This document shows, piece by piece, positions 1,006-50,057 of a DNA stretch of 64,000 nucleotides (positions are counted from its first letter, which is position 1; each line of letters starts with the position of its first letter). The notes beneath the pieces were generated by a model, which was given only the letters and a program-made list of their open reading frames with translations, did not search any database and had not been told where the DNA came from. The stretch is taken from assembly GCA_015680685.1 (NCBI GenBank), contig MNCI01000323.1, positions 59,305 through 123,304 of the forward strand, read 5' to 3'. Both the position numbers and the translations under genes were made by a program. The DNA comes from Gnetum montanum (taxonomy: Eukaryota > Plantae > Gnetophyta).

Positions 1006-1096
1006 GATCTATATCTGGTGCTTTGCTGCTGCGAAAATAGTGCCAACAAATGATGTAGACACAGGAACAGGGACCCTTCCTTCTTCTTTTTGTTCC

Positions 1097-2351: not shown

Positions 2352-3215
2352 TGATGAATCATAGTTTGTCAAGCCTCGATATCGGATCCTCGATATTGGG
2401 TATGCGATATCATAGCCTGGATAATGATATCGAATACACGATATCATGAATCCTGTGTAGGCCTATAAATATAGCATTCAAGAACATAGGAAGGAGTCAG
2501 TTGGTAAGTCTTAGGATAAATTCTTTTTGTCAATTTATAGTTAGTTTCAATTCTTTCCCCAATGCATGCCCACAATGTGATGATTGTAATTGTATGGAAC
2601 CTTTGTTTGAGTGTGATGTACTTGGACACGCACACGATCAATAATAAAGATTGAGATTACTCCATCATTGCAGCATTCACTTAGCTTTTAATTACTTTAA
2701 TTGTTAATTATTTATTTTTTTCTTTTTAGTTCATATTTCCTTTATTGTCATTTACACTACTTATTGATTAACACGGAATGAGTACCACTTAATCATGAAC
2801 ATGTAAGTGTAACTACTTGGTAACCCAGTAGTGTATCTAGTAGTGATCAAGTAATATATGCTTGGTAATTCTAGAAGTAGTACATGAAGTCCAAGATGCA
2901 TAAAAATGATTAAATATGGATGCTCATCACACTTAGGGTTAGCATAGATTTCATTTTCCATTGTCCATTACCTTAATTAAGATTGTTCCCCATCGTCTCT
3001 AGCAGTAGCACTAGTTTAGGATCCCATCATTCACCTCACTATAGACTAAACCATACGTGACAAAGAAAATACTAGTCTAGGTGGGAAGATAGCGAACTAT
3101 GATCAATGTGTAACTATCTAGATACCACGACAAGTCCGTCTGCGAAGTTTGACTGGATCGTTCGTACATGCTCGTATTCATATGGTTGAGCGTAGGAGTA
3201 CCTTGCCACTCATCA
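2352..3215 (+). mobile_element. 3' LTR of an Athila-like element (divergent subfamily) with its PPT
   Basis: ttattcagtcatggaggta (PPT, ~2333-2351) directly precedes TGATG; GATATC repeats and ctataaata follow; ends ...gtaccttgccactcatCA like the other Athila-like LTRs in the window. Confidence 0.8.
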
Positions 3216-14500: not shown

Positions 14501-15363
14501 TCACAAACAACTTAGTCCCCGGCAATGGTGCCAATGATGAGTGGCGAGGTACCCCTACACTCAACCATACGAATACAAGCGTTACACGCATGATCCGTTC
14601 AAACTCCATAGACTAAGTGCCTACACGCCTTATGGAAAACCTAAGGTTAATCATTTGTTGTCTTCCCAAACTTACTTGTATTTGTCACGGTTGTATGGTT
14701 AAGTAAGTCTCAGGTATATGATTTTTATATCTTTTATGTTTTATCACCTATGCTAATGAGGGAAAGGGTGAAGAGACTAAGTAATTAACTTTAACTAACT
14801 AAGTTCTAATGCCTAGCATCAGTATCCATCCCACTTTCCATTCACACCCTGAATCAATGCAACCTTCTGGGATTACCTAATGCTAATTGTTACTGGGATT
14901 ACCAAGCATAACACATGTGCTCAAAGTGGTCATACTGAATACACTTAACTATGAGAGTTCAAGGTTGAGAGAGATTAAGTCCTTAAGAAATTATTTAAAC
15001 AATTAACAATAATTAAAGTCCTATTTAGCTTAGTCAATGCACTGCAAGGTTTATCAAAAAGTTCATCTTTATTGCCGTACACAATTGTGTGCTCAGGTAC
15101 AGAATTGCTTGAATAAAGATCCGTTCACTTTGGGACTCCTACTGCGGGCACATGGAAATTATTCTAACTATGGAATGGAGAAATGGCAAGAGTTTGGCTA
15201 CAGTCTAGATCTAGATGGTGAAATAAGGAAGAGCCGCCACTTATTTATAGATTTGGTGGCAAGCTGCGATATCGCGTACGCAATATCGCAGGGAATGATG
15301 CGATATAGCATATACAATATCGCGTACACGATATCACGGCCCATGAGATATCGCGTCCCATCA
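8532..15363 (-). mobile_element. Non-autonomous Athila-like LTR retrotransposon, copy A (gag-PR, no RT/RH/INT)
   Basis: 5' LTR 14535-15363; tRNA-Asp-type PBS TGGCACCATTGCCGGGGA (~14516-14533); gag fragments 12486-14014; protease 11418-11760; internal PPT ~11030-11050; PPT 9144-9160; 3' LTR 8532-9143, truncated at its distal end. Confidence 0.88.
14535..15363 (-). repeat. 5' LTR of Athila-like copy A (829 bp)
   Basis: TGATG...CATCA termini; aligns with 8532-9143; abuts the PBS. Confidence 0.9.
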
Positions 15364-20107: not shown

Positions 20108-23100
20108 TGATGAGTGGCGAGGTACCCCTACACTCAACCATACGAATACGAGCATTACATGCACGATCTAGTCAAACTCCGCAAACTAAGTGCCTACATG
20201 CCTTATGGAANNNNNNNNNNNNNNNNNNNNNNNNNNNNNNNNNNNNNNNNNNNNNNNNNNNNNNNNNNNNNNNNNNNNNNNNNNNNNNNNNNNNNNNNNN
20301 NNNNNNNNNNNNNTTCACACCCTAAACCAATGCAACCTTGGTTACCAAATGCTACTCGTTGCTGGGATCACCAAGCGTAATTCACGTGCTCGAAGTGGTC
20401 GTACTGAGGCACTTAACTAGAAGAGAAGGGTTGAGAGATATTTAATGACTAGTAAAGAATTTAAATGATAAAAAATAAATAACAATAAATAAAATCCCAT
20501 TTAGCCTATTCCATGCACTACAAGGTTTATCTAAGAAGTTCATCTTTATTGCCATACACAAACATGTGTTCAGGTACAATATTTGCTCGAATAAAGATCT
20601 GTTCACTTTGGAGCTCCTACTATGGGCACATGGAAAATATTCTATCTCTGGAGGGATCAAACTACTAGAGTTTTGCTACGGTCTAGGCCTAGAATGAGAA
20701 ACAAGGGAGAGCTGCCTCTTATTTATAGATTTGATGATGCACTACGATATTGCGTATGTGATATCGCAGGGGAAGACGCGATATCACGTACGTGATATCA
20801 CGGCCCATGCGATATCGCGTCCCATCATACCCCCATGACTGAATAAAAATTCTTCCTCAAGTTCCTTACAAAATATTGGGATAGTATGGGATTACTGACT
20901 CAAATGGAACTAATGGGATGATGTGTGAATGGACCATCATTACAAGAAAAGACAAAACTGGTGTTCATGACAACAAGAGTGAACACCTTATACATTTGAC
21001 ATCAGGCCTTATTTGGTAGCTGAGAGAAAGAGAGAGAGAAAGAAGTGTTGCTGCTCCTAATGCAAAGATTGCACTTTTCATTATCCATCCATAAGTGCAC
21101 CGTCGATCTTGCTCCTTGCATAGTTGCTTCAGCACTGGTCCATTCCAAGTGTTCCCTCCAGATCCAATCCATTGTTGCATGATTGTCATTTGCACACACA
21201 ACACAGTCTTTATATTAGCAAGGGTAAATGAATCACAATGTAGTTGATACCTTACTTCGATGAAAGGTCCATTGGCTAGGTTGTGGTATGGCTGATTGCG
21301 AGTCTGGAGATATAATAGTGATGACTATCGAAGGTGCAGGGGTTAGGAGAAAATTGAAAAAATTGGGCCTCGTACCCCCATGACTAATCGCGAACCTCCG
21401 GTAGTGAGAGAATGGAAAAAGAAAAGGAACAAGAAAGATACCCAAAAAGAGACAACTATAACGTCGATGAAATGGATGTCAAGATGGAAATGAACAAAAT
21501 AATATAGATTGCAAAAATGTTAAGGGAAAGAATTTAACTAATGCACCAAATAGGAATGTCAGTGGGTCCTCCCGAAAGCAGGCTCATGCCCTGAATGCCT
21601 TGACATTCCCACATTCAAAGAGTCCGTAGGCTCTGGGAATGTCATTTGGAACAAGAGTTAAAGTCTTAACCACAAAAATTTACCGAAAAGAAAATAATGC
21701 GTCAACCAAAATATACACTAATGATACAATCAGCAATGAGGTGAACAATGGAGAGAAGGATGGAGAGAAGAGAATGGAATGGAATCCCAAGAACAAGGTG
21801 GTGTACAGCCCCTTGTGTAGTTAATGATTAATGTGACTTAGTAGATCCCATTCCAAGTCCGGCCTCAAACAAACTACTTCCAGTGACTTCGCATTAATGC
21901 ATTCGGCTAATCCATCCCCTTGACGCAACAAGAATGCCTTCCCAAAGAGCCACCACCATTCCAACAAAACGAAGGAGGAGAGAATGGGAAGTGAGAGGGG
22001 CATTAGTTAGAGGGAACATTTTTATTTTGAGATCCATAACCAGTGCTTGTAGCCCAAATGATTATTTCATCTAAGGGGTGTGCTTTGAATTCTTACAGTT
22101 TTTTTTTATGTTTATGCGTGAGAACCACACCATGCAAAGACTTTGTTATTTTTATTAACTCAACTTCCTGATAATTGGGTAACATCGAAACAATAAGAAA
22201 ACTCAAGAAGAAAACATCCAAGAACCCAAGAGAATGGCCAACACAAATGCATCAAGTTCCCTTCAAGTCACACCCTCTTCAATCCTTGAGTCCTTCCTTA
22301 GTTTGAGAAATGCCCAATCACAGATTCATTAATAGTTCTTATTTAGAAGGAGATTGTACATTTCCAAGCTGAGAGAGACCATAGAAATTGGTGGATGTAC
22401 GGATGAAGTCGACTCATTTCCTGCCATATTAAAAGACCCATACCTTAGTATCAACATCATGACTTAATGGTAAAAACAAAACATTAGCAATCAATAGAAA
22501 AATAGTTCATACCATCATTAAGAACACTTATTGGGTGACAAACTTACAAGATGGATAACACACACACACAAAATAAAAAAGTATAATGAGGTTGTAAACA
22601 AAATAAGAAAAGTTAAAGAAATTTGTAAAACAAAAATGTGCAAAACAAAAACGTGTAAAACAAAAATGTGTAAAAGAAAAAGGTGTAAAAAATTGTGTAA
22701 AAAAACATGTAAAAAAAATGTGAAAAACAATAACTTAAAAGAACTAAGGGCCCCAAATGATTAGCATAGGTGGCCATCTCCCCCATGACTGAATGGAAAG
22801 GAAGAGATCCGAAATAATGAACTCCTATTTGAATTTCTTAGAAGTGTCCAACTTCTCCCAATTGATGTTCTTCAATTAAGGGGTGGAAGTCGGCAACACT
22901 CATACTCCAATGTATCTATGCCTTCATTGTNGCAGCACTGATACTCCAATGTATCTATGCCTTCATTGTTGGCATGAGTTATTCTCCCAGTTCGTTCTAT
23001 GCATGTTGGTGGGCTGCTTCCTTGATCAGCTGTCAACCACTGGGTTTTCTCTTGTTGTGTGGTTGCTACATACAGGCACCTTTGTATCTAAGTTTCTAGG

Positions 23101-26100
23101 ACACACCGATTGCATGCAGGAGATGTTAAATTTTACATCACCCATGATTGTTGCATGTCATCACCCTCTGAGTCACTGTATGTGATGCATGGAAATTTCT
23201 TCTTCTTGATCTTTCCATAAATTTTTACCTTAGATATTTCCAAGGAAAGATCATGGATTCCTAGGCATGTGTCTATTGTGTTTAGCCATGCCCTTCCCAT
23301 TATAATTGGGAAGTCCCCTTCATTGTTGTTAACTTCTATCACCAGCAAATCAGCTGGGTATGACCAACCACACACAATGGTAACAATGTCCTCCACTAAT
23401 CCCAAGAAAATGGTGATGGATTGGTCTGCCAGCTCTAGTTGAATGTTTCTCTTCTTAAGTGGAGGCAGGTTCCAGGATTGATACATTTCTCATGATATTA
23501 AGTTAACTCTGGAACCTGAGTCAAGAAGAGCCTTACGTGGTTCGTTCCCGGCGACTTGGAGGTAGATTAAGGGACTCCAAGGGTCAGATATTTTCTTGGG
23601 AAGGTGGCCTACCTTGATCCAATTGGTTATGGTATGTGTTAACATAACCGTATGCGTTGAGCTCTGGTATTGGTTTGAAGGGAGCTTCGAAGCCTTATGT
23701 GTTGGATGAGTGTGCATAGACTTAACTGCTTATGGTTGTGAGAGCTTGTCTAGGCTTTTGGTTTTGAAGAAAGGTCTTCTTTTCTTGTGGTTGTCAGAAC
23801 CAGCAGCGGGTTGAAGGTTCACAGCTCTCGTAGCATTACGTTGCTGCGGTTGATTGGGGAGTTCCCCTTGCATTTTTGGAGCAGGAGGTAGTGGAACTAC
23901 CAGTGGAAGAGAGGCAGACGGATTTGGAGGATGGTATGGATATGGAGTGTCTCCTGAAGGAGAAGGAGTCCTTCTAAAGTACTCCTGAACTTGGTAGTGA
24001 TGTTGGGGAGTTGTGTGACCCATAGAGTCACTTGGAGAAACTGGTTGTTGCACGTAGTAGCCATAAGGATCAAGTTGTCGGTAAGGGTATTGTTGTTTCG
24101 GCGGTGGCATCCCCCATGACTATGGGTATTGCCACTACTGATGTTGCCCGATGGGTTGTGGTAGAGTTCCACTTGGATAGTACGTCAACAATTGGTGGAA
24201 CTATCTTGGGTTACCTTGGGGATAAGGTAACCTTCGGGGTGTCTTCCGTCTGTTAAGTCTCGGGTTGAGTGCATACATCTCAGACTCTTGTAGATGTGAG
24301 ATGATTGTACAACATCCCTTAGGATGGTCATATTGGAAAATCTCACATCCATCATCATTGTTTGTATCTGAATCCACAACCTCATTGGAAATAGTTATTT
24401 TCCCCTTACCTTTGTCACGTGCAGGGCCTAAATATCTCCACTTTTTCTTGTCCTTGTCACTGCTTCGTTCCTCCTTAGATTCCTCTACAATCTTTAGGAC
24501 AGTTTCAATTTTACTATCTAAGGAGCTCCATACATCATCTACCTTAGCCGATACTTCCGTTGTTAGCTTTTGAAGCGGAAAGGTTTTTCTATTCACCAAC
24601 TCTTCAAGTGGTGACTCATCCTCTTCATCGCAACATCTCATTCCCCTCTTCCGGAGGGAAGGATCATGGTAATATGCTTCTGTGCTCTCTCTTTTTTGTA
24701 GCTCCCCTTCTTCTTTGGCTACTTGCTCCAACAATCGATGAACTTCATGGGATCTAAGTTCTGATAATCTCTCTTGGGCATAAGTCCCAAGGGTTCTCCT
24801 AGTTTCATACCATAGCCCATCTACGATGTGGCGGAGTTGATCCCACTATGCATAATCATGGCCCAGGCAACGATGTAGCAATGCATAGTAGCGGCCCATG
24901 GCAACATCCAAGGGTTCGTGAGTTCCTTGCTTCCATCCTTGGATCTTCTTACGAAATTTAGACACTCTAGAGTACGTTTCATATTTATTGTTGAAGAGTT
25001 CTAACATCGTACTCCACCTCCTAATGGTTTCTAGTACTAGGGACTGGTACCAACTCTCTGCTTCCTTTATGAGTGTCCTAGGAAACAACTTTAATTTCTA
25101 CCACTCATTCTCTATGTTTTGCAAGGCATAGGCATCATGGAATGCCTATAAATGATTTTGCAGATCAATGTTGTATCCCCCTTCGAAGCATGGGATATTA
25201 TTCATGTCTAAGCACTTGATCCGACTATCTTTTTGATGCCTTGTTGGTATTCTCACTACCTCCGTTATATCTAGCATGCTTCGGGTGGCAAGTAGGGGTT
25301 TATCATGATCATCTCTTTCATGACATCTATGATGCCTTTCTAGTTCCCTACTTTCCCTTCATTCATGCCCTTGTCCTTGCTCTGGACTCTCTCATCGAGG
25401 TCTCTCATTTTGCCTACCTTTATCCTCACCATTATGCTCTTGGTGACTGCACCCTAATGTGGAAGGAGAGGGTGAATGATGTGATGAAGGGAAAGAAGAA
25501 GGAAAACCATCACCATGACGATGTTTCTTACCTTCTCTTCGGTAGCTTCGGCCCCGATCGTGATGATGATCTGAATGCCTGTCCTTGTCATGAGTTGTTG
25601 TTCCCTTAGTGAATAGCTGGTGTTCACAGGGATCAGGACCATGGTTGTGTATCATGGAGCGTAGGTTCTAATACCCCACCTCCTCACTATCTTTAGAAGG
25701 GGGAACATCTTTTGATAGAGAACCATTTATAAGTGGTTCACCATCTCCCATTTACGTAGGACATGCAGGACCCCTTTTCCCTTCAACAATGTATGATGGC
25801 TCTCCTACCTTAAGTCCCTTAAACATTGTGTGGTTGTGGGATGGTAATCCCTCATGTCAAAATCTACCGCAATGTATTCAGCGTATAATTCCATCATGCC
25901 TATCTATGCCAGAGCACGGAGGAGCATGTTAGGGACTGCATGATATGGAGGTAACACTATGTTACCTTGTAAATCTCTCCAACGCATCTATTCATCCTGA
26001 TGGAGGATAAAAGTAAAATTGGGTATATACTCATCGAGATGAGTATATACCACCCTATACTGTTGAGGAACTGGCTAATTTTGGTTATGTGTTTTAGACT

Positions 26101-26879
26101 GCCGACTGTCTCTTGTATGATCCCTAGGTGGTGAAATGCTCTTATGAGAAGAAGAAGAAGACATGATGTCTTATCAATGTGCTAATTAACTATTATATAA
26201 TTTTTTTTAATTAACCCTAAGGTTCATTTAAGGTCCCAAGGATGTGGGTGATCTCCTATGTTCTACTTAGCGCACAAACACTTAGTCCTCGGCAACGACG
26301 CTAATGATGAGTGACGACGTTCCCCTACACTCAACCATACAAATACGAGCATTACACGTGCGATCTGGTTGAACTCCACAAACTAAGTGCCTACACACCT
26401 TATGGAACACTTAAGGTTAATCATTCATTGTATTCCCAGACTTACTTGTATTTGTCACAGTTGTATGGTTAAATAAGTTTGAGGTATATGATTTTTATGT
26501 CTTTTCTATTTTATCTTCTATGCTGACGAGGTGAAGGGTGAGGAGACTAATTAACTAACTTTAACTAACTAACTAAGCCTTAATTAACCTAGCATCAGTA
26601 TCCGTTCCCACTTACCGTTCACACCCTAAACCAATGCAACCTTGGTTACCAAACGCTAGTCGTTGCTGGGATCACCAAACGTAAAGCATGTGCTCGAAGC
26701 GGTTGTACTAAGGCACTTAACTAGGAGAGAAGGGTTGAGAGAGATTTAATAACTAATAAAGCAATTAAATGATAAACAGTAAATAAAAATAAATAAANTG
26801 CCTCTTATTTATAGATTTGATGGTGCACTGCAATATCGTGTATGTGATATCGTGGCCCATGCGATATTGTGTCCCATCA
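20108..26879 (-). mobile_element. Non-autonomous Athila-like LTR retrotransposon, copy B, complete with TSD
   Basis: 3' LTR 20108-20827 and 5' LTR 26305-26879; perfect TSD ATTTT (20103-20107 / 26880-26884); PBS TAGCGTCGTTGCCGAGGA; gag 24201-25655; protease ALLDSGSRVNLIS 23133-23540; no RT/RH/INT. Confidence 0.92.
21002..22003 (-). pseudogene. Putative hydrophobic extra (env-like) ORF of the Athila-like element
   Basis: ORF pieces 21821-22003, 21233-21445 and 21002-21199 share one frame (~334 codons with internal stops) with hydrophobic stretches; the homologous region is present in copies A (~9300-10330) and C (~40375-41454). Confidence 0.45.
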
Positions 26880-32243: not shown

Positions 32244-33133
32244 GTTTATTCTGCATATTTCTTGTTTTGCATTGACTTTTGCCATTGGATTTTATCATCA
32301 CATTGTACTACACGCTAAACACAAATATTGTGTTTAAATCTCCATGATTTTTCTTCAGAAAATTGCCTATTTTCTCCTTTATTTTAGGGTATCAAAATGG
32401 TTCTTATTATTTGAAACACTAATAACAATTCTTTACCAAAGTGTTTCAAAAGTTCTTTGCATGAAAACTATATCATCAAGGTGGCCCTTTTCTTTTATTG
32501 GGTCCTTTGCTTTATGCCTCCTCCACTTTGTCTTCCCATCAATTTCTTGCAAGCAACTGTAAAACAACTAGTAAGTTCTTTGCTATGATGCTACAGAAGA
32601 TTCCTCACAAGGAAATGAAACCAAATGCTTACCAATCATAATGTTACAGACCTAGAACCAGGTAAAAATGCACTCAGTGTGTCAGTCTACCATTTCTTAT
32701 GCACCATGGAAAGTTCCTGTCAAAGGAATACAACCAAATGTTTTTGAACCAAAATGCTACAAAAGGATAATGAACTAGTGCCACGTTTGGGGTGCTAATT
32801 CTTGAGTTACCACGATGATGAGACGCGAATTGCACAGGCCGTGATATCGCATCCCCTGCAATATCACGTACGTGATATCGCGTCGTTCCCTGCGATATCG
32901 CGTATGCGATATCACGATCTGCTGCCATTTGTAATCCTAGGCGTAAAATAGCAAAGCTCTAGCGGATTGATCACCCCAGAGATAGAATATTTTCCATGTG
33001 CCCACAGTAGGAGTCCCCCAAGTGAACGATTCTTTATTCGAGTAGCTTTGTACCTGAAGGCAAGTTGTGTATGACAATAAAGACAAGCTTTGTGGATAAA
33101 CCTTGCAGTGTATGGATAGGTTTAATTAATGTT

Positions 33134-34593
33134 TGTTAGTGACCGTTTGGGATGCAACCACCAATGAGTGTCCTCGAATAGGATTTAGGTGCCTGCTGAT
33201 CTCTGGCAACACCAAGGCCCAGATACCTCCAAATAAACTCAGTAGTTAATGTGAGTATGTGTGTGTGCTGTTGTGGTGTGCGGTTGTGTGAAATGTAACG
33301 ATTGCATTATGTGTAAACTATGAATGACTTACTTTAAAGAGATTCAGCCAACTTTGCCAANNNNNNNNNNNNNNNNNNNNNNNNNNNNNNNNNNNNNNNN
33401 NNNNNNNNNNNNNNNNNNNNNNNNNNNNNNNNNNNNNNNNNNNNNNNNNNNNNNNNNNNNNNNNNNNNNNNNNNNNNNNNNNNNNNNNNNNNNNNNNNNN
33501 NNNNNNNNNNNNNNNNNNNNNNNNNNNNNNNNNNNNNNNNNNNNNNNNNNNNNNNNNNNNNNNNNNNNNNNNNNNNNNNNNNNNNNNNNNNNNNNNNNNN
33601 NNNNNNNNNNNNNNNNNNNNNNNNNNNNNNNNNNNNNNNNNNNNNNAGGCTCTCTTACAACAATCCCAATAGCAATCCCTATACGTTGCACAATAACAAA
33701 ATTTACTACTAAAATGCTCTTAAGGCTTTTAAACACAAGTGCTTCTATGGCAATATTTTAATAGAAATTTCTATCGAGCAACAAGAACAGTAAGAGCAAT
33801 CTAAAAATCCAAAAATTACTTGCCAAGGATGATACTATCTAAACCACTAGCTAAACAATTTAAACAAAACAAAAAATAAAATACATAACTCATAGGACCC
33901 TGACAAAGAGGCTGAAATCTTTACCCTAGCAAGCCATCTTACAAGCAATCGTTCACAATTTCTTCTTTACAAAGCTCTTCTCAAGACCCCAAGTGTGTCT
34001 TCAAGTGAGAGCCTAACTGCTAACTAGTAGCCTTCCAAAGTGTGATGTATGAAACCTCCAATATCATATTTCTCCTTGACCCCTAAAGCCTTTTTATAGG
34101 GCTCAAAGGTAGTTAGGTAAGTTACATATTTAAAAATATCTTACCTAACTTTTCTCCCAAGTAACTTGGCCAACCAATTAGGAGATTCCTTGCCCAACAA
34201 GTTAGGAGGTTACTTGCCCAACAAGTTAGGTAAGTTACAAAAAATCTTGTATGGTTGTACCCACCATAGAGATAAAAAAGGATACAATTGACAAGTGTCT
34301 TCATGATAATCCAAATTAAAATTANNNNNNNNNNNNNNNNNNNNNNNNNNNNNNNNNNNNNNNNNNNNNNNNNNNNNNNNNNNNNNNNNNNNNNNNNNNN
34401 NNNNNNNNNNNNNNNNNNNNNNNNNNNNNNNNNNNNNNNNNNNNNNNNNNNNNNNNNNNNNNNNNNNNNNNNNNNNNNNNNNNNNNNNNNCCATAACTAT
34501 CTTTTCCTTTTTAAATCATAAAATATTTTATTTTCCTTGTAGTGATAGAGATAGTAACCATGGATTTGATATATGTATGCGTATACAACCGAA
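33134..34593 (-). repeat. LTR-like repeat family X, copy 2, inserted into the LTR of Athila-like copy C
   Basis: Homology to the Athila LTR stops at ttaattaatgtt|TGTTAG (33134); the minus-strand end is ...cactaACA; 33927-34593 is colinear with 1-553; contains two N-gaps. Confidence 0.65.
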
Positions 34594-34617
34594 GTTATAT
34601 CAGGGCCGATTCCATCT

Positions 34618-35031
34618 TCATCTTCTTTGCACTTTGTCAACAGCATTTTCATCTTCCATCTTTGGAGGGGAACTAGGCAGTATTCTCTCCACGGTGGAAA
34701 TAAATTCTTGAATAGAATCTTCTGACATTCGCTCTTCACAATCCTCAATTATCATATGAACTTCAATTGTTGTAGTAGGTCTAAGATTTAAAACTTGAAG
34801 CTTCTCTACCTTGGTAATTTCAAATTGTTTTACTGTTTCTAAGAACTCTCTAACCGATTCCTCATTTTGCTCACATACTACAGACTGTACTAGATAATCG
34901 AAAACCTTGCACTCTGAAGGAGCTGCAGAGCCTATAGAGCCTAAGGGATCTTGAGTAGCTCCTCTAGATCGTAACAATTTGAGGAATTCAAAATTTGAGA
35001 GTACCCTAGCATTAGCATCCTTTATTTTCAT
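34618..35031 (-). pseudogene. RPC17: Intronless copy of RNA polymerase III subunit C17 (RPC17/RPC9/CRCP, Rpb4 family); ORF open
   Basis: MKIKDANARVLSNFEFLKLLRSRGA...SECKVFDYL...ITKVEKLQVLNLRPTTTIEVHMIIEDCEERMSED; 137 codons uninterrupted; lies inside nested retroelements. Confidence 0.85.
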
Positions 35032-35483
35032 GGTATTCAAAGAAGCTCCAAGTCACTAGGTCCTGAGAGCCCTAGAGCTAGATTAAGTTATCGATTTGAC
35101 CTCTGTAAATCACGTTTCATCCAAAAATCATTTTCCGTTGAGCCGCATTCATTTCTAAAAATCATTTTATGCTTCGCTGTTGTCTTCCTTGTCCTCCACC
35201 CACACGCTATCAAATAAGGCCCTGGTGTTGACTCGTGTGTGCGTGCTTAGTACTGCAGAAATGCTCAATAAACACAGGTGTAGCTGCCACTGCTGCAAGA
35301 GATCCCTCTTCCAGTGCATAGGAAGGTAAGTAACGCATCCGATGATGGAGGGTTTCTTCAAGATCAAACCCTAGGCACTGTCTCACGCGTCTGGTGCTAA
35401 ACCTCTAGATACAGTGCGCTGGAGGTCTCTTTCAACCACGCTCTACTTCTGTTGCCATTTCAAGCTCCTGCATAAGGAACCTT

Positions 35484-36075
35484 ATGGCTCTCGTCAACCT
35501 AAAATTAACTAAAAATAATTTCTATGGTCGTCTTCTTTCCTGGACAGGCAGCTTCCACAAACTGCAATTTTTGAGCTTCACTTTCAACCAATTTAGCAGG
35601 GACATTCCAGTGTCACTCGCCAATCTCTCCCAACTTGACTTTACACATAACGGACTGATGGGCACAGCACCTTCTTCTTGGATAGGAAAAGTCTGTAGTC
35701 ACATGGTTTACTTGAATGTGGGGAAATACTATTTCATAAGTGAAGACGACGTCAGCACCCATTCTTATCTTGGAAGCTCTATCCAATTGCTTTGTCTTAC
35801 AGGAACTACGTCTTTACCAAAACATGCTAACTGGAACTTTACCAGTCAATTTGGTGAGCTTCTGGCCAAATATGCAGGACATGGATGTGTTTTCCAACTT
35901 CATAACTGGAAGCATCTCTGCAAGCTTAGGAAATCTGTCTTCTCTCTATTGGTTTCAATTGGATGATAATACATTGAGCTGCAGCATCCCTTCTCAGATT
36001 GCAAATTTGAAGTCTCTGCAGGATTATGGTCTTTGAGACAACAAATTTCTTGGCAAGATTCCCACTGAAACCTCT
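35484..36075 (+). pseudogene. Plant extracellular LRR (RLK/RLP) fragment, frameshifted
   Basis: LxLxxNxF/LxGxIP repeats (NLKLTKNNFYGRL, LRLYQNMLTGTLP, LGNLSSLYWFQLDDNTLSCSIPSQIANL). Confidence 0.8.
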
Positions 36076-36077
36076 CT

Positions 36078-36128
36078 CCTAAACCATACGCTGTAAGTGA
36101 AAGTAATCCACTCCTGCTTCTTCACCAT
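36078..36128 (-). pseudogene. Short TM9SF-like fragment
   Basis: MVKKQEWITFTYSVWFR resembles TM9SF IIKExERITFTYEVxF; very short. Confidence 0.35.
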
Positions 36129-39100
36129 GTTGCCTCCTCATAATGGGCTGTTCCAAATGCTTTTGCCATTTGCCAAGGCGGATGATCTTGAATGTACCTG
36201 GCTTTCAAGAGCATTTCATAGCCCAAACAATATAACTCTCAATTCCAAGGCATCATTTGGTTTCTACAAGTAGCCTTAGATTCATTACCTTCCCATACCT
36301 TATGGAGATTAACTAAAACCCACTTCTTGACTTGTACATCAATACATGTTGGTAGATCCAGTGAATACTTCTTTGACACTAAAATAGCTAGTAGAGGAAT
36401 GTCATGAACTCTGAACAATTGATCATTTGTCTTAAACAAAACTGTATTNNNNNNNNNNNNNNNNNNNNNNNNNNNNNNNNNNNNNNNNNNNNNNNNNNNN
36501 NNNNNNNNNNNNNNNNNNNNNNNNNNNNNNNNNNNNNNNNNNNNNNNNNNNNNNNNNNNNNNNNNNNNNNNNNNNNNNNNNNNNNNNNNNNNNNNNNNNN
36601 NNNNNNNNNNNNNNNNNNNNNNNNNNNNNNNNNNNNNNNNNNNNNNNNNNNNNNNNNNNNNNNNNNNNNNNNNNNNNNNNNNNNNNNNNNNNNNNNNNNN
36701 NNNNNNNNNNNNNNNNNNNNNNNNNNNNNNNNNNNNNNNNNNNNNNNNNNNNNNNNNNNNNNNNNNNNNNNNNNNNNNNNNNNNNNNNNNNNNNNNNNNN
36801 NNNNNNNNNNNNNNNNNNNNNNNNNNNNNNNNNNNNNNNNNNNNNNNNNNNNNNNNNNNNNNNNNNNNNNNNNNNNNNNNNNNNNNNNNNNNNNNNNNNN
36901 NNNNNNNNNNNNNNNNNNNNNNNNNNNNNNNNNNNNNNNNNNNNNNNNNNNNNNNNNNNNNNNNNNNNNNNNNNNNNNNNNNNNNNNNNNNNNNNNNNNN
37001 NNNNNNNNNNNNNNNNNNNNNNNNNNNNNNNNNNNNNNNNNNNNNNNNNNNNNNNNNNNNNNNNNNNNNNNNNNNNNNNNNNNNNNNNNNNNNNNNNNNN
37101 NNNNNNNNNNNNNNNNNNNNNNNNNNNNNNNNNNNNNNNNNNNNNNNNNNNNNNNNNNNNNNNNNNNNNNNNNNNNNNNNNNNNNNNNNNNNNNNNNNNN
37201 NNNNNNNNNNNNNNNNNNNNNNNNNNNNNNNNNNNNNNNNNNNNNNNNNNNNNNNNNNNNNNNNNNNNNNNNNNNNNNNNNNNNNNNNNNNNNNNNNNNN
37301 NNNNNNNNNNNNNNNNNNNNNNNNNNNNNNNNNNNNNNNNNNNNNNNNNNCACCAACTGTTCACGGCAGGAACAACCACTCACACTAAGGATGGACACTT
37401 AGATCGTTACAACGATCGGGGCCGAAGTAGCCGAAGAGAAGGTAAGAAACATCACCACGGTGATGGATCCCCTTCCTCTTCTCCTTCAGCTCACCATTCA
37501 CACTCTCCTTCTACATCTGAGCGCAACCATCGTGAGCATAACGGAGAGGGTAAAAGTAAAAAGGAAGATGAAAGACCTCGACAGGAAGTTCGAGAGGAGT
37601 TAGGACAAGGGCAAGGACATAGGGAGAGTAGGGAACCACCACGAAGACATCATAGATGTCATGATAGAGATGATCATGACGAACCCCTACTCGCAACCTG
37701 AAGCATGCTCGATATCACAAAGGTAGTTAGGATCCCCACAAGGCACTTAAAAGATTGCAGGATCAAGTGTTTGGACATAAATAATATCCCACATTTTGAA
37801 GGGGGATACAACGCTAATCCTCAACATCATTTACAGGCATTCCACGATGCTTGTGCCTTGAAAAATATAGATAATGAGTGGTAGAAGCTTAAGTTGTTCC
37901 CAAGGACACTCACTAAAGAAGCAGAGAGCTGGTACCGGTCCTTAGAACCAGAAATCATCAGGAGGTGGAGTACGATGCTTGAACTGTTCAACAACAAATA
38001 TCAGACGTACTCCAGAGTGTCCAATTACCGTAAGCAAATCCAAGGCTGGAAACAAGGTGCTTATGAACCCTTGGATGTTGCCATGGCTTGTTACTATACA
38101 CTGCTACATTGTTTCCCACGCCATGGGTATGCTAAGCAGGATCAACTTCGCCACATCATGGATGGGCTAAGGAATGAAACGAGAAGAACTCTTGGGACTT
38201 ACGCCCAAGGGAGACTTTCCCAACTTAGAGCCCATAAAGTTGAAAGTTTGTTGGAATAAGTAGCACAAGAAGAGGGTGAGCTACGTAAGAGGGAAAGTAC
38301 GAAAGAATACAACCGTGATCCCTTCCTTTGCAAGAAGGGAGTGAAATTCTGTGATGAGGAGGATGAGTCACCACTCGAAGAGTTGGTGAANCAATACCCT
38401 TACCGGCAGCCCGATCCTTACAGTTATTATGTGCAGCAACCAGTTTCTCCAGGTGACTCTATGGGTCACACTACCCCCTAACATCACTACCAAGCTCGAG
38501 AGTACTTCTGGAGGACTCCTTCTCCTTCGGGAGATATCTCACATTCAGTCCATCCTCTAACTCCACCCGCACCTCTTCCACCTGTAGTTCCCATACAACC
38601 TATTCCAACAATGCAAGGGGAATTACCTACCCAACCGCAGCAACGTAATGTCGCGAGAGCTGTAAATATTCAGCATGTAAATATCCAACCAGGTACTAGT
38701 TCTGACAATAACTGTACAAAAAAGAGACCTTTTTTTAGAACTAGGAGCCCAGACAAACTCTCGCAACAACAAGTGGATGGGTACATGTATAGGCCTCTAA
38801 CCACTAACGCTTCGGAGAACCCTTTAGTCCAAAAGAGCGTAATGCATACGGTTATGTTAACACATACCGTAACTGACTAGATCAAGGTAGGCCACCTTCC
38901 CAGGAAACTAACTAACCCTAGGAGTCCCTTTATTTATTTGCAGATCGCTGGAAATGCACCACATCAGGATCTTCTTGACTCGGGTTCTGGAGTCAACTTA
39001 ATTTCACAAGAGATGTATCAGGCCTGGAACCTGCCCCAACTTAAGAAGAGGAACATCCAACTGGAGCTGGCAAACCAGTCCATCACCATTCCCTTAGGAT

Positions 39101-42100
39101 TGGTGGAGGATGTTATTACCACTGTGTGTGGTTGGTCCTACCCAGCTGACTTTCTGGTGATCAAAGTGAACAACAACGAATGGGACTTCCCAATTATAAT
39201 GGGAAGGGCATGGCTAAGCACAGTAGATGCATGCCTTAGGATCCACGATCTTTCCTTGGAAATCTCTAAGATAAACATATGTCGAAAGATCGAGAAGAGG
39301 ATAGTTCCATGCATCACATACAGTGATTCATCGAGTGATGACATTGAGGAAATGTCTCCATGTAATAGGTGTGCCCAAGAAACTCTGCAACAAAGATGCC
39401 TGTATGTAGCAACCACACAAGAAGTATTAGACACCCAGTGGTTGACAGCTTCTTCTAGGAGCAAACAAATATGCATGGAATGAACTGAGGAAAATCATGC
39501 CAACAACCGTGGCATAGACACATTGGAATGTGAGCGTCGCCAACTTCCACCCCTCAACTTAAGATCATCAATTGGGAGAAGTTGGGCACTTCTTAGAAAT
39601 TCNNNNNNNNNNNNNNNNNNNNNNNNNNNNNNNNNNNNNNNNNNNNNNNNNNNNNNNNNNNNNNNNNNNNNNNNNNNNNNNNNNNNNNNNNNNNNNNNNN
39701 NNNNNNNNNNNNNNNNNNNNNNNNNNNNNNNNNNNNNNNNNNNNNNNNNNNNNNNNNNNNNNNNNNNNNNNNNNNNNNNNNNNNNNNNNNNNNNNNNNNN
39801 NNNNNNNNNNNNNNNNNNNNNNNNNNNNNNNNNNNNNNNNNNNNNNNNNNNNNNNNNNNNNNNNNNNNNNNNNNNNNNNNNNNNNNNNNNNNNNNNNNNN
39901 NNNNNNNNNNNNNNNNNNNNNNNNNNNNNCTAAGGTATGTTTCTTTTGATATGGCAGGCAATGAGATCACTTCATCCATCCATCCACCAACTTCTATGGT
40001 TTCCCTTGGCTTGGAAATGTATAGTTCCCTTCCAATAAGAACTTTAATAAATCAGTGACTGGGTATTCTCAAACTAAGAAAGGACTCAAGGATTGCAAAG
40101 GGTGTGACTTCAAGGGAACTTAATGCTTTTGTGTTGGTCATTCTCTCGGATGCTTGGATGTTTTCTTCTTAAGTTTTCTTACTATTCCGATGTTACCCAA
40201 TTATTGGAAGCTGAGACAATAAAAATAAGAAGTCTTTGCATGGTGTGGTCCCCATGCATAAAAACACAAAATACAAAAAAAAAACCAAAGTAAGGATTCA
40301 AAGCACACCCCTTAGACGGAATAACTTTGGGCTGCAAGCACTGGTTATGGAACCAAAGTGTTCCCTCTAACTAAGGCCCTTCTCGCTTCCAGTTCTCTCC
40401 TTTGTTTCGTCGGAATGGTGGTGGCTCTTCAAAGATGCATCCTCATTATCTAAGTGGATGGTTAGCCAAATGCATTGATGCGAAGTCACTGGAAGTGGTT
40501 GGTTTGAGCCCGAAGTTGGAATGAGACTTGCCAAGTCACATTAACCATAAAACACACAAGGGGCTATACACCACCTTGTTCTTGGGATTCCACTCCACTT
40601 CTCTTCTTTCCATCATTCTCTCCATTGTTCACCTCATTGCTGGTTGTATCATTAGTGTATATTTTGGTAGATATATTATTTTCTTTTTGGTAAATTCTTC
40701 CGGTTAAGACTTTAACTCTTGTTCCAAAGGACATTCCCAGAGCCTACAGACTCTTTGAATGTGGGGTTGTCAGGGCATTAAGGGCATGAGCCTACTTTGG
40801 GGATTACCCACTGACATTCCTACTTGGGACATTAGTTAACTTCTTTTCCTTAACATTTTACAATTAATTTTATTTTTGTTCATTCCCATCTTGATATCTC
40901 TTTCATTGATGCCATAGTTGTCCCTTTTTACCTATCTTTCTTACTCCTTTTCTTTCTCCATTCTAACGCTACTGAAGGTTTTTGATTAGTCATGGGGGTA
41001 CGGGGCCTACTTTTTCGATTTTTCTCCTAAGCCCCGAATTTTTTCATTTCTCTTCCTAACCCCTACACCTTTGGTAGTCATCATCTACATATTCCTAGGT
41101 CCATATCAGCCATACCACAACCTAGCCAATGAACCTACACCGAAGCAAGGTATTGTTTACTTAATGATTCAATTACCCTTGCTAATATATGATTGTGTTG
41201 TGTGTGCAGATGACAATCATACAACAACGGAATGGATCTGGAGCAAACACTTGGAATGGAGCAGCGCTAAAGCAGCTATGCAAGGAGTAGAATTGATGAT
41301 GCGCTTACGAATGGACAACGGAAGGCACAATCTAGGCATTGGCAACAGCAAGACTCTTCTCTCTTCTTCTCTTCTATTCTTTTTCCTCTTTTCTCTCAGC
41401 TGCCAAATGTGGCCTGATGTCATTGTAATAAGGTGTTCACCCTTGTTGTCATGAACACTAGTTTTGTCAAGTCTTGTAATAATGAACAGTTCACATGTCA
41501 TTCCATTAGTTCCATTCCCCTCAATAATCCCATACCTACCTGATATTATTGTAAGNNNNNNNNNNNNNNNNNNNNNNNNNNNNNNNNNNNNNNNNNNNNN
41601 NNNNNNNNNNNNNNNNNNNNNNNNNNNNNNNNNNNNNNNNNNNNNNNNNNNNNNNNNNNNNNNNNNNNNNNNNNNNNNNNNNNNNNNNNNNNNNTTAATT
41701 AATGTTATTTATTGCTTTCCTAGTAACGCGGCATGAGTACAACTTGGTTACGAGCGTTGATGAACGTGTACGGCTAGCCAAGAAATCGGCTACTCATCGT
41801 GATTATATATACTCACCCTTACCTCCTAGAACATGGGACAAGTACGACTTGATTACGAGCATCTACGGATGCGTACGGCTAGTCAAGGAATCGGGTGCTT
41901 GTCACACTTAGGTTAGTTAAGTGCCTCAGTATGACCGCTTCGAGCACGTGTGTTACGTGTGGTAATCCCAGTAACGATTAGCATTTGGTAGCCACAGTTG
42001 CACAGTTCAGGGTGTGTACGACAAGTGGGAACGGATGCTGATGCTAGGACTTAGTGTTGTAGTTAGAATTAGTTTTAGTCTCTCAACTCTTCACTGTTAG

Positions 42101-42794
42101 CATAGGAGATAAATCAGAAAATACCAAAAAAATCATATACCTCGGACTTACTTAACCATACACCATGACAACAACAAGTAAGTCTTGGAAGACAACGATT
42201 AATTAACCCCAAGTGTTCCTTACAGCGTTTAGGCATTTAGTCTGTGGAGTTCGACCAGATCGCGCGTGCTACGCTCGTTTCGTATGGTTGAGTGTAGGGG
42301 TACCTCGCCACTCATCACACGATGTCAACATTTGCACAAGCAACAGACAAGGCTTTTACAAAGTGAAAAGAGCATTCACGACTCTACCATGAGGTTTGTT
42401 TATGACTGTGAGGTTGGTAATTGCTATAAAAATGACCCATGCTACCACCCTCAATTCTAGTGTTGGCAAAATGAGGAGAACAAGCAATAGACAAATATAT
42501 AATTTTAGTTTAATCAACTATCTATTACAGCTAAATTCATGCCATGATTTGAATACAATTATGATACTACAGAGTGTAACAAGGAAGCACAACTTTGCAA
42601 GGTCCACATGAACAAAATAAGTAGGTACAACTAAGGGAGGTTCTATTCTATTCTATTCTATTGTCCAATCTAGTAGTTAATTAAGATATCCCAAAAGTTG
42701 ATGTGACATCGATCAATCAAGAGGGAAAATACTTGAATCATGGTCATATACACATGCTGGCGATGTCCACAAACAAAATAACATCTAGGACATT

Positions 42795-44819: not shown

Positions 44820-47800
44820 ATCGCAATATAAAAAAATACAATCTTTATTGCTCACACAACTTTTTACAAGAAGCAAGGAATACTTTAGAGGTGCAATACG
44901 TAGCACTCTAGATCTCTCTTGCTTTTTAGCGTACAAGGAATGCTTTGAAAGGCACACAATGCAGCACTTTCAGATCTCTCTTATACCACTCTAGAGTAAT
45001 GAATGCTTCACAGATGCACAAGGCGCAACAATCTGGATGTCTCTTACTCTTTTACTCACACTCTTTTACTCACACTAGACAACTCTCTAACTCTTTGTTA
45101 TATGCTCTCAAAACTTTTTGGACCTCTACTTCTACTTACAAGACTTTATATAGGCGTGCAGCCACCACCTTACAATCAGATAAACATTACATAGTGGAAG
45201 ACAACATGATTGCAAATATTACATTCTAGCAAACATTATTATATGGAATATTTGATACATGATTCTTTTTATGGGGCAGTGTCAAGTGTGCTTGGTGGAG
45301 AATCACTTTCTCTTGGTGTGGTCATTTATTTTGCCTTGAATTCCTCTAAATGTGATGTGTCCATAGTACTGTCAGCAATTATGCCTGCGAGATAAAGAGT
45401 TTTCTCATATCCACCATGACGTCGAAAGGTTTCAATGTGTGGTTCCAAGTTGTAAAGCTCAAGGGTACATGGCACGCATTGCTGATTTTGACAGGTCATA
45501 ATGATATCATAAGTGATAATGGTGTACACATCCTAGAAAAAGGCATAACTAAAAGTATTGTCTCAATCAATGCATCTAGATATACAAGTTGTCAAAAAAT
45601 ATAATGATGGATTAATGGTTTAACCAAAATGCCAATTTTTGGATTCAAGATGAGCATAATAGAGCAAGTCACCATGATAAGAGGGAAGTCGATGATAAAG
45701 GTTCCTAGGATATCCATTTGGTATATGTAAAGAGGAGAGACCAAAACGTGCCCACCAATCCCAAAATAAAACATTTTTATTTGAAGGATAATTAATAGGA
45801 CTCATTTCTATTTTATAAAGGTGGACAGGATCAAGCTAATACAATGGCCAACACAAAATTTCAAGAGGATTACCATGTTGGATGTCAATATAAGTCATGA
45901 GTTTGCAGTGGATGGGGATGACAGACAAATCCTCTCTTTCATCTTGGATTGTAAACACCTTTTGGACTATAGTGGTATATGGGGATATATTTTGGTTTAT
46001 TAATAGGAAGGAATCCCACCATGGTTCACATTCATGTTTGTAGAATGCTTGCTCTGCAAAAGACATATAAGTTTCATGACAATGTAGATGCCTAAGCTAT
46101 CAACAGTAGCGCAATGTCCATCCTTCTTGCTGTAATAGATCTACAAGACTTATATACAAGTTTAATACAAACATATTATGAGAAAAATAATAATTAAAAT
46201 TGAAATTCTCTAGTAAGGAAATCTGCTAGAGAATTATTCTTTCCATCTAAATATTGAGTTTCAAAAGAAAATTTAGGTAGAAACAAATACCATTGAATTA
46301 ATTTTGTATGAGCAACTTTGTTAAGATTTTTCTTTATGTGTATTGTGATAATTGAGTTGGGGTGTATTGTGATAATTGAGTTGGGGTGCATTGAATTTAC
46401 TAGAAGCATATCAACAAATATGAATAATACCATCTATTTCTTCTTTTAAGGTAGCTCCCCAAAATTCATAGGATGCATTTTCCTCAAGAATGAATCTACC
46501 ATTAGTTGGGAGTCTAAGCTTTGGAAGATGTAGACATTTTTCTTTAATTTGTTTAATATTAGTTTTATGTTGTTCAGTCGAAGCTCCAACATTAGAACTT
46601 AATTGTTGATTTAACAATTTTCTGTCTTTAGCAAGATGTTGATAAAATCCTGAAACATAATTGATGCAACTAAGAAACTGTTGAAGTTGAGTTTTATCAG
46701 TAATAATGTCAGGAAAATTCTTGATTGCAATTAGCATGTCGGTTTGCAGATGGATATGTCCATGTGAAATTTCTAAACCAAGAAAATTCACAGTTGGTTG
46801 AGCTATAGTCATTTTCTTTTTAGAAGGTGATAGGACTAATCCATTTTCATCCACTAATTCATAGAATTTTTCTAAATGTTGAAGATGGTCTGCTGCATTT
46901 TTGCTCATGATTAAAATATCGTCAATATGTATAATAATAAAAGGATATTCAATAAATATTTTATCTATACATTGTTAAAATATAGAGGGGGTAGTTTTCA
47001 ACCCAAAGGATAAAATTTTCCATTCGTAAAGTCCACTGAGGACTGTAAAAACAGTTTTCCATTAGTCAGGTTTGTGAAGTTGGATTTGCCAAAATCCAAA
47101 TTTTAAATCAAATTTTGAGTAAATGTTCATATGTTGTAATCGTTGAAGTAAATCATCTTTACTCGAAATGGGATTTTAAATAGATTTAACAATATCATTC
47201 AGGGGTTTATAATTAACCACTAGCCTTTTTTTACCGCAAACTATTTCTGCTCTTTTATTAATGTAAAAAGAAACACATGCAAGGAACTAGTGATAAGTTG
47301 AATGAGTTGTTTTTGTAGTAATGTCTAAATTTCCTGATCACATTCTTTACGTACTTCAAGTGACATTCCAATATGATGTGCCTTACTTTGGATTTTGACA
47401 TTATCTTTTAAATCTATCATACACCAATGTTGTTTTTTATGATGGAAAACAATCAGATCTGATGCTAATCTAAGCAATTTCCTTTTTATAGTATCAAAAG
47501 CATCATGATGGTGTGATATTTGATTTATGACCCAATCTATTTTTTGAGTTTTTTGTTTAAGTAGTGTTTCAAATCTAATTTTATAAGTAGATTGTCTAGG
47601 AAAAAAATATTTCTTAAAATAATATTTTAAGAAGTAATAGCATATGGTTATAAAGTTTGTAAATTATCAGTACCAACTAATAAATCATAGGATGGAATAT
47701 TAAACTGATAAACTTGCAAAAACATGATGGTTCTTTTAGGAGTATAGATGGGAATGGAGGTTTGCATTTCTATTGTTCTATGTTGTGTATTAAACACAAC

Positions 47801-50057
47801 CATTTGCTTTTCGCCATTTTTCCAACAAAAGTCAAGAAGAACTTTAGGTCCAGCTAAAGATATTTTTACTCCACTATCAATCAAAGCATTAATAGGATAA
47901 GATTTTAAACTAGGTAGTTTAATATGAAAAGTACAAAAAAGTAATGATGTTTTTACCTAATTTTTGTTAACTAATTGAATTGGTGAAGCTTGTTTACCTT
48001 GTTCTTCATAAATTTTTCGTTGTTCACTTTTCTCTTCTTGTTTTAATTCCTATAATTATCTGTTGGCCCATTCAATGAACGTTTGCAATTGTTGTATCCT
48101 ATGAGTTCGCCATAAGGATCTTTGTGTTGGATCATTAGCATTTAATGGTTGTTTGTTTTATTTTTTCACATTCTTCTTCTAATTTTAATAAATCTTTGAG
48201 TTGTTCTTCATCAGGTGGTTGAGAATCTTCATGAAATAAAGCTTGTTCTTTTAAATATCTTTTATGTAGTTTGATTTCCTCTTTCTTTTCATTAATTTTA
48301 TGTTCAAAGAAAATACATTTGTGAATATGATCAACAAGTGGAGTTTTCTTTACAGCTTTCTACAAATTCTCAAGTTGGTTGTTTAATTCTTACAGAATTA
48401 AATTATCATCAGGATTATGATATTGAGGAATGTGACCTTTTATATATGGCCTAGTAGAAGGTCTAAAACAAGATGGGTTATTTTTATAAAAATTGATATT
48501 ATAGTAAAAAACATCAAAATCATCTGAATCCAAATTAAGATCGGGATAATCATCATATTTATGATCAAAAGGAAGCCATTCCATACCTTCAAATAAATAG
48601 TCATATGATGTATGTATTATGATATCCCCTTATTGTAAACCAATATCTTCATTTGTAACCCAATCATAATATTGTTCATTTAATGGATGTTTTTCAATAA
48701 AATTAATCTTATTTTGATGATAAGATTTCTGAGGGCATTGATTTGAAAAATGTGGACCTTGGCAAAGATAACATTTAATATTTTTTCAAGGAAGTTTTCT
48801 TTGTCTACGTTTAAACATTCCTCTAAACCTTTTTCCTTCTGGTCGTATTGTTTGAGGTTTTCTATGCCATTATTGCTATCTTCTTAGTCTTTTTCATTTT
48901 TTATTTTTTTTTTGGGATGTTGTTCTTTTTTGGCAACATGCTTTTTCTTTGTAAAACATTTCTTTTGGATAGATCTCTAAACAGATAGATTTTCCTATTT
49001 TTTTTTTACTAAGATCTACTATTTGGCGTTGTGCTTGTTGGTCATAGCAAAGTTCTTTATTAATGTTGGTAATAAATTTCCTAATTTCACCAAAACTCAT
49101 TTCTACTAAGACTAAATTTTAATGTTTTACTTCAGCCAAATATTTGTTACAAAATGGTTGGAGTCAACAACCTGGTAGATGCTCTTTTGCGCCAATCTCA
49201 TGCGTCAATTTTCCATTATAATATAATTCTTCCATCGTGTCTAAAAATCTATATAAATCTTGGATTTTAGGTTATCTAGCTTTAAAAAATCTATCCCTAT
49301 ATAAATTTTCTTGATTTTTTCTATTTCCTACAAATTCTTTTGTAATAGCATTTAAAATAAAAACACTCGGTGCATTAATCAACTTTCTTTTGATTGGATT
49401 AGGAATATGGTTCCACCATTGTTTAAAGATACCTCTAAAAAGATAAGTAGCATTCTAGATAGCTTGTCTAGAGGTTTTTCTTTTTAATAAAATCTGAATA
49501 AACAAATAACTATAAATTGAGTCAATGAATTCTTGTCTTTCTTATAGATTTTTATTATCCATTGTAAAAATTGGGCTTTTATCTTGAGCTTTTCGTACTT
49601 GAATTGCAGCAAAATCTATAAGATCTTCTATTTGTGTATTAGAAGTTTTGGATAGTAAGATCTTTTCTTCAAAATCTGAGGTAGTACCTCCTTCTAATTC
49701 AGTACTACTAGTAGAGGGTGTTTTGATGTGAATACCACTAGTATTAGCACTGACTTTTGATTTTCTTCTTTTTTTTTCTCTCCTAATTCGTTTTGTTTTC
49801 TCCTGTATCTTGTAGTATGTGATTTTCCTATGTGAGGTGGAGATCCCAGAATAGGTAATTCTTTTAGTGAAGATAGAACACTCGTTTGTACTTTTGGTAC
49901 CCAGACGCTATGTATTTGTATGAAATTATTATATATAATGTCTAACTTTTTATCTTGTTTTGCTACCATTTCTTCTATATTATCAATATTTGTATTTGCC
50001 CAGTTTTGGAGTTGTACTATATTAAAAGGTTGGAGTTTTGCAGTTGTACTATATCAG
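44820..50057 (-). mobile_element. Endogenous caulimovirid A, left arm plus central single-copy spacer
   Basis: Decayed CP with CYLCQGPHFSNQC knuckle, protease ALIDSG (~47875), RT IHIDDILIMS (~46920), RH ending NSLADFLTREFQF (46194), extra ORF 45269-46140, TATA 45145-45152, AATAAA 44844-44849; no integrase or LTRs. Confidence 0.9.

Follow-up and report, generated by a model that had tools for sequence, protein, structure and literature searches.

A probable gene-capturing LTR-type insertion carrying an intronless RPC17 copy within another LTR element

Which kind of mobile element could have assembled the block at 33134-36448 of the 64,000-nucleotide stretch of DNA analysed here (the window), in which an intronless copy of the RNA polymerase III subunit gene RPC17 (RPC9) and a fragment of a leucine-rich repeat (LRR) receptor kinase lie next to a high-copy repeat, nested in another long terminal repeat (LTR) element? 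The initial annotation described the block as a gene-capturing LTR-like insertion. This description stood as far as the block has a TG end within a host LTR, contains no gag or pol, carries an intronless RPC17 and has multi-copy cargo, but its orientation is most likely reversed. In our reading, the block represents the 3' portion of a non-autonomous LTR retrotransposon that has degenerated, lies on the minus strand and has an interior that was probably derived from host transcripts through template switching by reverse transcriptase (RT); we assign this reading a probability of about 0.6. Membership in the LTR retrotransposons is putative; the second LTR, the primer-binding site (PBS) and the target-site duplication (TSD) would fall in a scaffold gap.

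A minus-strand element was favoured because of the LTR-type end, a TATA box, U3-like subrepeats, a polypurine tract (PPT), a step in sequencing depth, and because it would put three of the four cargo genes that were identified in sense. The RPC17, cellulose synthase (CesA) and saccharopine-dehydrogenase-like cargo all lie on the minus strand, and the available text of PMC11963269 reports that transduced genes are mostly in sense orientation. In the proposed sequence of events, spliced host mRNA would have been co-packaged in virus-like particles and captured by template switching, after which an autonomous relative could have mobilised the product in trans. The visible repeat would then be the 3' LTR, with RPC17 in sense, and the 5' LTR, the PBS and the second ATGTT would be hidden in the gap at 36449-37350.

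The insertion and its LTR-like end

The window is part of a gapped draft scaffold, which is interrupted here by three stretches of N (33361-33646, 34325-34490 and 36449-37350). Self-comparison and LTR alignments revealed three copies of the host LTR element, at 8532-15363 (copy A), 20108-26802 (copy B) and 32816-42317 (copy C). The features at the insertion point, in the repeat and in the adjoining tail are as follows.

32816-42317, plus strand: host element C, with the TSD CACGA at 32811-32815 and 42318-42322
32816-33133, plus strand: first 318 bp of the 5' LTR of C, cut by the insertion after TTAATTAATGTT
33129-33133, no strand assigned: ATGTT, putative left copy of the 5-bp TSD of the insert, preceding its TG end; the right copy would lie in the gap
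33134-34324, minus strand: very high-copy LTR-like repeat (repeat X), read as a 3' LTR that ends in ...CTAACA at 33134 and probably starts near 34460
34093-34098, minus strand: TATAAA in the conserved block CCCTATAAAAAGGC; equivalent in the other copy of repeat X (copy 1) at 125-130
34165-34236, minus strand: three U3-like tandem subrepeats of 24 bp, upstream of the TATA box in the minus sense
34500-34512, minus strand: PPT of 13 nt, AAAAAGGAAAAGA, conserved in copy 1 at 430-439
34513-34593, minus strand: conserved 3' tail of the internal region (440-556 in copy 1; 80-110 bp)
36449-37350, no strand assigned: scaffold gap of 902 N, expected to hold the right end of the insert and about 1.4 kb of C

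The nesting of the block in a TSD-bounded element, as first proposed, was confirmed by CACGA on both sides of copy C and by a sharp break at 33133/33134 in its 5' LTR. At this junction TTAATTAATGTT is followed by TGTTAGTG, which starts with TGTTAG, whereas at the matching place in the 3' LTR of C the LTR alignments have TTAATTAATGTT followed by ATTTATTGC, which starts with ATTTAT. Because the two LTRs differ right after TTAATTAATGTT, the start of the foreign block lies precisely at 33134 and is of the TG type. The visible terminus is TG when read on the plus strand and CA when read on the minus strand; it sits right where the host LTR is interrupted, with ATGTT before it. Homology to C resumes at 37351-37386; before this point, C lacks about 611 bp of its LTR and some 765 bp of leader. 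Since the 902 N are fewer than the missing ~1.4 kb of C and the end of the insert together, the stated size of the gap is too small.

Contigs from four DNA runs, labelled as four related organisms, were placed on the window at ≥80% identity. Repeat X includes the gap at 33361-33646 and runs on into the gap at 34325-34490. Its presence at 1-556, part of the initial annotation, was supported by five colinear pieces shared by window positions 1-556 and 33927-34593, at 71-91% identity (BLAST E 4e-18 to 0.023), but the homology begins at 33927 and not at 33134. Contig depth assigned 33134-33926 to this high-copy repeat as well. Copy 1 and the copy in the block (copy 2) are 71% identical over 405 aligned columns, gaps not counted, and the spacing across the gap of 166 N in copy 2 fits the ungapped copy 1 (212 bp in copy 1 vs 203 bp). 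Single contigs join 33244 to 33841 (runs X4 and X6) and 33266 to 34076 (run X1) as deletion variants; hence, the first gap is flanked by parts of one and the same repeat.

Summed word depth, which is not a copy number and for which no more than many non-identical copies is claimed, amounted to 1e5-1e6 at 33134-34309 in all four DNA runs. This is comparable to the LTR of the host element, and compares with 2-9 thousand in the tail and at 36207-36404, and with 86-2600 in the cargo. The approximately 40-fold fall is located in the 166-N gap, just on the LTR side of the purine tract. In copy 2, TATAAA occurs on the minus strand only, and it is kept in both copies. Copy 1 has subrepeats of its own, of 20-57 bp, at 203-356. 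The tract at 34500-34512 is the longest purine/pyrimidine run within 33134-36448, and in the ungapped copy 1 the purine tract is followed by TT and then by TG. The homology between the two copies stops at ...ACAACCGAA.

Inverted terminal repeats involving the left end were not found (33100-36448 examined; the right end lies in the gap). A scan of viral contigs with a 27-nt motif of the LTR yielded 0 matches. The sole metagenome locus that matched a 19-nt motif of the tail (L001) was dismissed as a chance match to an unrelated microbial or phage-like contig.

In the three copies of the host element, gag and protease were matched by Pfam, and no RT, RNase H or integrase was found among open reading frames (ORFs) of ≥70 aa searched with Pfam; these copies may be non-autonomous themselves. 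An additional piece of LTR end, at 20108-20210, lies ahead of copy B, and the left LTR of copy A is without the last ~180 bp that are present in B and C. An isolated 80-bp piece of the LTR end lies at 3138-3222, with 80-86% identity to 14529-14613, 20108-20186 and 42240-42318.

RPC17, its expressed parent and the other cargo

The cargo of both copies of repeat X comprises the following features.

34611-35031, minus strand: cDNA-derived copy of RPC17/RPC9 (Rpb4-like), consisting of the ORF and a remnant of the acidic tail
35032-35397, minus strand: upstream flank of RPC17, similar to an expressed RNA as far as 35397, from which point the RNA reads continue with different sequence
35478-36033, plus strand: LRR receptor-kinase ectodomain fragment, matching GSO1/FLS2 at E 8e-35, with one frameshift near 35720-35760
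36207-36388, no strand assigned: conserved segment of higher copy number, with a depth similar to that of the 3' tail
1-556, minus strand: backbone of copy 1 (partial LTR, PPT and tail), cut by the edge of the window; LTR homology at 1-425
674-793, minus strand: decayed scrap of the CesA catalytic core, aligning with residues 209-245 of CesA3
1100-1843, minus strand: 5' half of a saccharopine-dehydrogenase-like coding sequence, covering residues 3-63 and 71-226 of a 457-aa homologue

An intronless RPC17 adjoining repeat X had been noticed from the start, and it was recovered as an intact ORF of 137 aa at 34621-35031 on the minus strand (Pfam RNA_pol_Rpb4, E 3.7e-16), 18-27 nt from the end of repeat X; homology to RPC17 starts about 18 nt from the backbone. 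The ORF aligns from residue 1 with gymnosperm RPC9/RPC17, with most of the acidic tail absent, and its best named matches are from the gymnosperms Cryptomeria, Ginkgo and Taxus (55-67% identity). It is unbroken at the two intron places of the conifer genomic exon P0011, before KDAN and after SECKV. By eye, 34611-34636 still resembles the acidic-tail coding sequence of the parent, with an indel of 1 nt, so that a frameshift closes the ORF. Neither a 3' untranslated region (UTR), nor a poly(A) or A-run, nor a TSD of its own was found at this copy, and the homology ends in the part that encodes the acidic tail. A processed pseudogene of the long interspersed nuclear element (LINE) type was rejected, as the copy is without a poly(A) tail or flanking TSD. 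In contrast, a partial, intronless mRNA copy without poly(A) agrees with template-switch capture inside virus-like particles.

Raw RNA reads from two runs (350 and 29 reads) were placed at ≥80% identity, covering 34623-35414. The reads lie contiguously on the RPC17 ORF. At all nine listed places in the ORF, every read of run X24 carries another letter than the window, and so do all reads of run X21 except two, one at each of two places. At place 34671, the DNA family keeps the A of the window, with G in only 4.7 of 821 and 12 of 572 depth units, whereas G was found in 16 of 16 and 11 of 12 RNA reads. Furthermore, six RNA reads extend to the left of 34637 into acidic-tail coding sequence. Because the RNA differs from both the window and the DNA family, and because it reaches the acidic tail, its source is a separate, expressed parent RPC17 gene. 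Reads that carry the letters of the parent have no bearing on the expression of RPC17 copies borne by transposable elements (TEs).

In comparison with the family and the parent, 10 of the 11 listed differences in the window ORF are non-synonymous, and most are transitions. At nine of these 10 non-synonymous places, the other letter encodes a residue that is conserved in homologues. The RPC17 copy in the window is decaying, with an ORF that is open by luck and under no visible constraint.

Among the placed DNA contigs, at least 15 and at least 16 distinct contigs were found at place 34689 in runs X1 and X4, respectively, which points to many non-identical copies of the cargo. The junction between the tail and RPC17 was bridged in three of the four DNA runs, by a variant that skips 31 bp (34569 to 34601) and has 33 letters on its shorter side. 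At least five contigs are deletion derivatives without most of RPC17. Such derivatives explain the higher depth of the neighbouring parts: 86-450 in the RPC17 core, 370-2100 at 35085-35414 and 3.5-9.8 thousand at 36207-36404. Since the cargo and the junction of repeat and cargo are multi-copy in four organisms, these results support that the block moved or multiplied as a unit.

The upstream flank of RPC17 (35032-35397) is either the 5' UTR of the parent or a second captured transcript. The initial annotation had listed a segment without identity next to RPC17; of this, 35085-35397 turned out to resemble expressed RNA. For a protein donor of 35170-35370 on the minus strand, an exhaustive HMMER search gave five matches, all to long repetitive proteins with incoherent Pfam content, which we regard as compositional noise.

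The LRR fragment was indeed located on the opposite strand, antisense to RPC17, and matches the ectodomains of GSO1/FLS2. Within it, a 155-bp stretch at 35690-35846 with GT..AG ends is replaced by 5 other letters in DNA contigs of three runs. This stretch was rejected as an intron; the LRR reading crosses it with a frameshift only, and the skip is not clean, and it is treated as an indel. The contigs with the replacement come either from copies that differ by this indel or from a paralogue. At 35981-36020 and 36088-36128, two pieces, both about 40 bp long, match abundant RNA reads (77-123 each). These reads continue into unrelated sequence on both sides, a short likeness to highly expressed transcripts.

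No Pfam or Atlas signal was obtained for the conserved segment at 36207-36388, and other copies part from the window to the right of 36388. The reported absence of gag and pol was upheld: among 62 stop-to-stop ORFs of ≥25 aa in 33134-36448, gag, pol and EMP70 were not found, 0 of 62 ORFs matched a retroelement family, and the three Pfam matches were to RPC17 (one) and LRR (two). A TM9SF-like scrap, also reported, was not recovered; five ORFs over 35903-36270 gave no Pfam match at E up to 10, and 36125-36238 on the minus strand gave no PDB match. A likeness by eye of 36242-36448 (minus strand) to an integrase C-terminus was rejected, with no Pfam match and with low Atlas matches to unnamed bacterial and phage clusters only. 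Rfam yielded one sub-threshold chance match within 32700-37500, outside the block.

The claim that copy 1 carries different cargo on the same side was verified by the CesA scrap and the saccharopine-dehydrogenase-like sequence, both to the right of the tail and on the same (minus) strand as the backbone. The latter is contiguous, with one frameshift, and gives E 8e-51 to its best library match. Plus-strand ORFs in 557-3300 had no Pfam match. The family may pick up cargo repeatedly, a suggestion based on two cargo sets in the window and on two diverging contigs in one run.

Two further observations concern the surroundings. At 6545-6775 on the minus strand, a scrap of cohesin SCC3/SA HEAT repeats was detected by Pfam (E 2.4e-4, below the curated cut-off); it sits between gag at 7462-7878 and RNase H pieces at 5328-5595 and 3258-3716, all on the same strand, and is possibly another captured host fragment. 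An inverted pair, 44820-49591 vs 54903-50058, spans about 4.8 kb at 87% identity and bears RT/RNase H, with weaker relatives at 58505-59691.

Alternative explanations

Several observations weigh against a minus-strand LTR retrotransposon. A second LTR copy was not found in 33134-36448, nor in the rest of the window except at 1-556, and a PBS was not identified in the visible sequence. The boundary between LTR and PPT of copy 2 falls inside the 166-N gap, and the 902-N gap cannot fit about 1.4 kb of C plus an LTR of 1.3 kb, so that the gap has been given a wrong size or the inserted element is truncated. Depth inside the LTR is uneven (130-570 at 34061-34067), which makes the depth step soft evidence. 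The intronless call leans on the intron positions of a conifer homologue rather than on those of the parent in the same species, and simple template switching on mRNA does not predict the antisense LRR piece. The ends of the repeat also permit the opposite orientation, as both copies combine TG (at 33134 in copy 2) with CA (34558-34559) and TGG after it. An element of the same type on the plus strand would have its 5' LTR at 33134-34559 (TGTTAG...GTAACCA), followed by a PBS-like TGG and by RPC17 in antisense. This would turn the LRR fragment into sense, and AATAAA is present on the plus strand at 33232 and 33875. However, TATAAA is absent from the plus strand of copy 2, the conserved purine tract would be left without a role, all identified cargo genes but one of the four would lie in antisense, and the TGG stretch has no tool-based match to a tRNA. 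Moreover, the depth of 3.8-8.5 thousand at 34491-34556 is like that of the internal region and not like that of the LTR body (1e5-1e6). We therefore consider the plus-strand orientation very unlikely.

Another vehicle, such as a Helitron or other DNA-level capturer, or a series of independent nested insertions, would reduce the LTR piece and the LRR fragment, together with an RPC17 retrocopy of earlier date, to passengers or neighbours. The mixed orientations of the cargo would suit such a history, as would the unseen second LTR, PBS and second TSD copy and the different depths of the RPC17 core, 35085-35414 and 36207-36404. Yet deletion derivatives account for the differences in copy number, and the left end of the insertion is a TG/CA-type terminus of a high-copy repeat. 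The visible part is without inverted terminal repeats, and its end, TGTTAG / CTAACA, does not appear to be that of a Helitron. RPC17 itself is intronless and has neither poly(A) nor a TSD of its own, which argues against a LINE-type retrocopy that was captured later. Hence, a different vehicle seems improbable. A scaffolding artefact, in which short, repeat-rich contigs were misplaced into gaps of C and the mosaic is not one locus, appears to us the least probable of these explanations. It would agree with a block cut by three gaps, with a 902-N gap too small for its required content and with the divergence of other copies to the right of 36388. The junction at 33133/33134 and the run from the tail of repeat X through RPC17 to the LRR fragment (34491-36448), however, each lie in ungapped sequence. 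The join over 34325-34490 is colinear with the ungapped copy 1, that over 33361-33646 is backed by the deletion-variant contigs of three runs, and the bridging of the junction between repeat X and RPC17 comes from independent DNA runs. The degenerate minus-strand LTR retrotransposon thus remains our preferred explanation.

Comparison with known gene-capturing elements

Gene-carrying LTR retrotransposons are known from maize (Bs1), rice and sorghum, according to the available text of PMC13317346, PMC5131818 and PMC3726574. As Bs1 is described there, the block resembles it in being a probable LTR element without its own pol whose interior comes from several unlinked host genes. It also resembles the Bs1 group, whose copies are reported to share switch points, implying secondary retroposition. 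In contrast to the 1-5 copies given for Bs1 in these sources, the cargo studied here occurs in many non-identical copies in four related organisms. Furthermore, one captured ORF is nearly full length here, whereas paired LTRs and a translated chimeric gene were not seen.

LTR-mediated retroposition by template switching was described for animal retrocopies by Tan et al. 2016 (PMC5131818), in the available part of which the resulting chimeras are considered able to act as non-autonomous elements. Like the chimeras presented there, the block has a partial, intronless mRNA copy without poly(A) in place of the retrotransposon ORFs. The antisense LRR piece departs from the template-switch model as given in that text (PMC5131818).

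The accessible text of a survey of gymnosperm TEs reports about 400,000 captured gene fragments per genome, and its figures include Ty3 and Ty1 LTR elements with captured exons (PMC13477047). The best RPC17 matches are from gymnosperms, and the window probably belongs to the same lineage as the genomes covered by that text. According to the same source, most of the host TEs carry one fragment and 13.7% carry two or more (PMC13477047), whereas the block contains at least two or three.

The block is also like Pack-MULE and Pack-TYPE elements, as non-autonomous carriers that multiply mosaics of host gene fragments. Capture by those elements takes place on DNA and preserves introns, and their ends bear terminal inverted repeats (TIRs) and, in MULEs, TSDs of 9 bp. 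Unlike Pack-MULEs, the block has no TIRs in its visible part, its cargo is intronless and its visible end is of the LTR type. The initial annotation had called the family a retro-analogue of Pack-MULEs; this does not define a new category, as capture by LTR elements was already described for Bs1, rice, sorghum and gymnosperms.

More speculatively, and in our view unlikely, this abundant LTR family might be a serial gene-catcher with a fixed docking point, in which only the last ~100 bp before the PPT would be kept, different spliced host mRNAs would be joined there in sense in different lineages, and each chimera would be amplified across a genus. This idea is based on two cargo sets (RPC17, and CesA with the saccharopine-dehydrogenase-like sequence) and the two diverging contigs. 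If true, such a family would be the equivalent of Pack-MULEs among retrotransposons, and would have a preferred site of template switching.

Host-gene capture by LTR elements is already documented, and the locus is a well-resolved further case, a clear example from a seed plant with a large genome in which gene capture mediated by LTRs can be dissected. It would gain weight if the family captures many mRNAs at one preferred site, or if RPC17 copies are expressed and under selection. Here, the coding sequence of a subunit of RNA polymerase III, intronless and nearly complete, lies on an element without pol and has been multiplied across related species, and this TE-borne RPC17 is seen in mid-decay while the parent gene is still expressed. 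The locus thereby adds a case to a process that shapes the gene space of gymnosperms.

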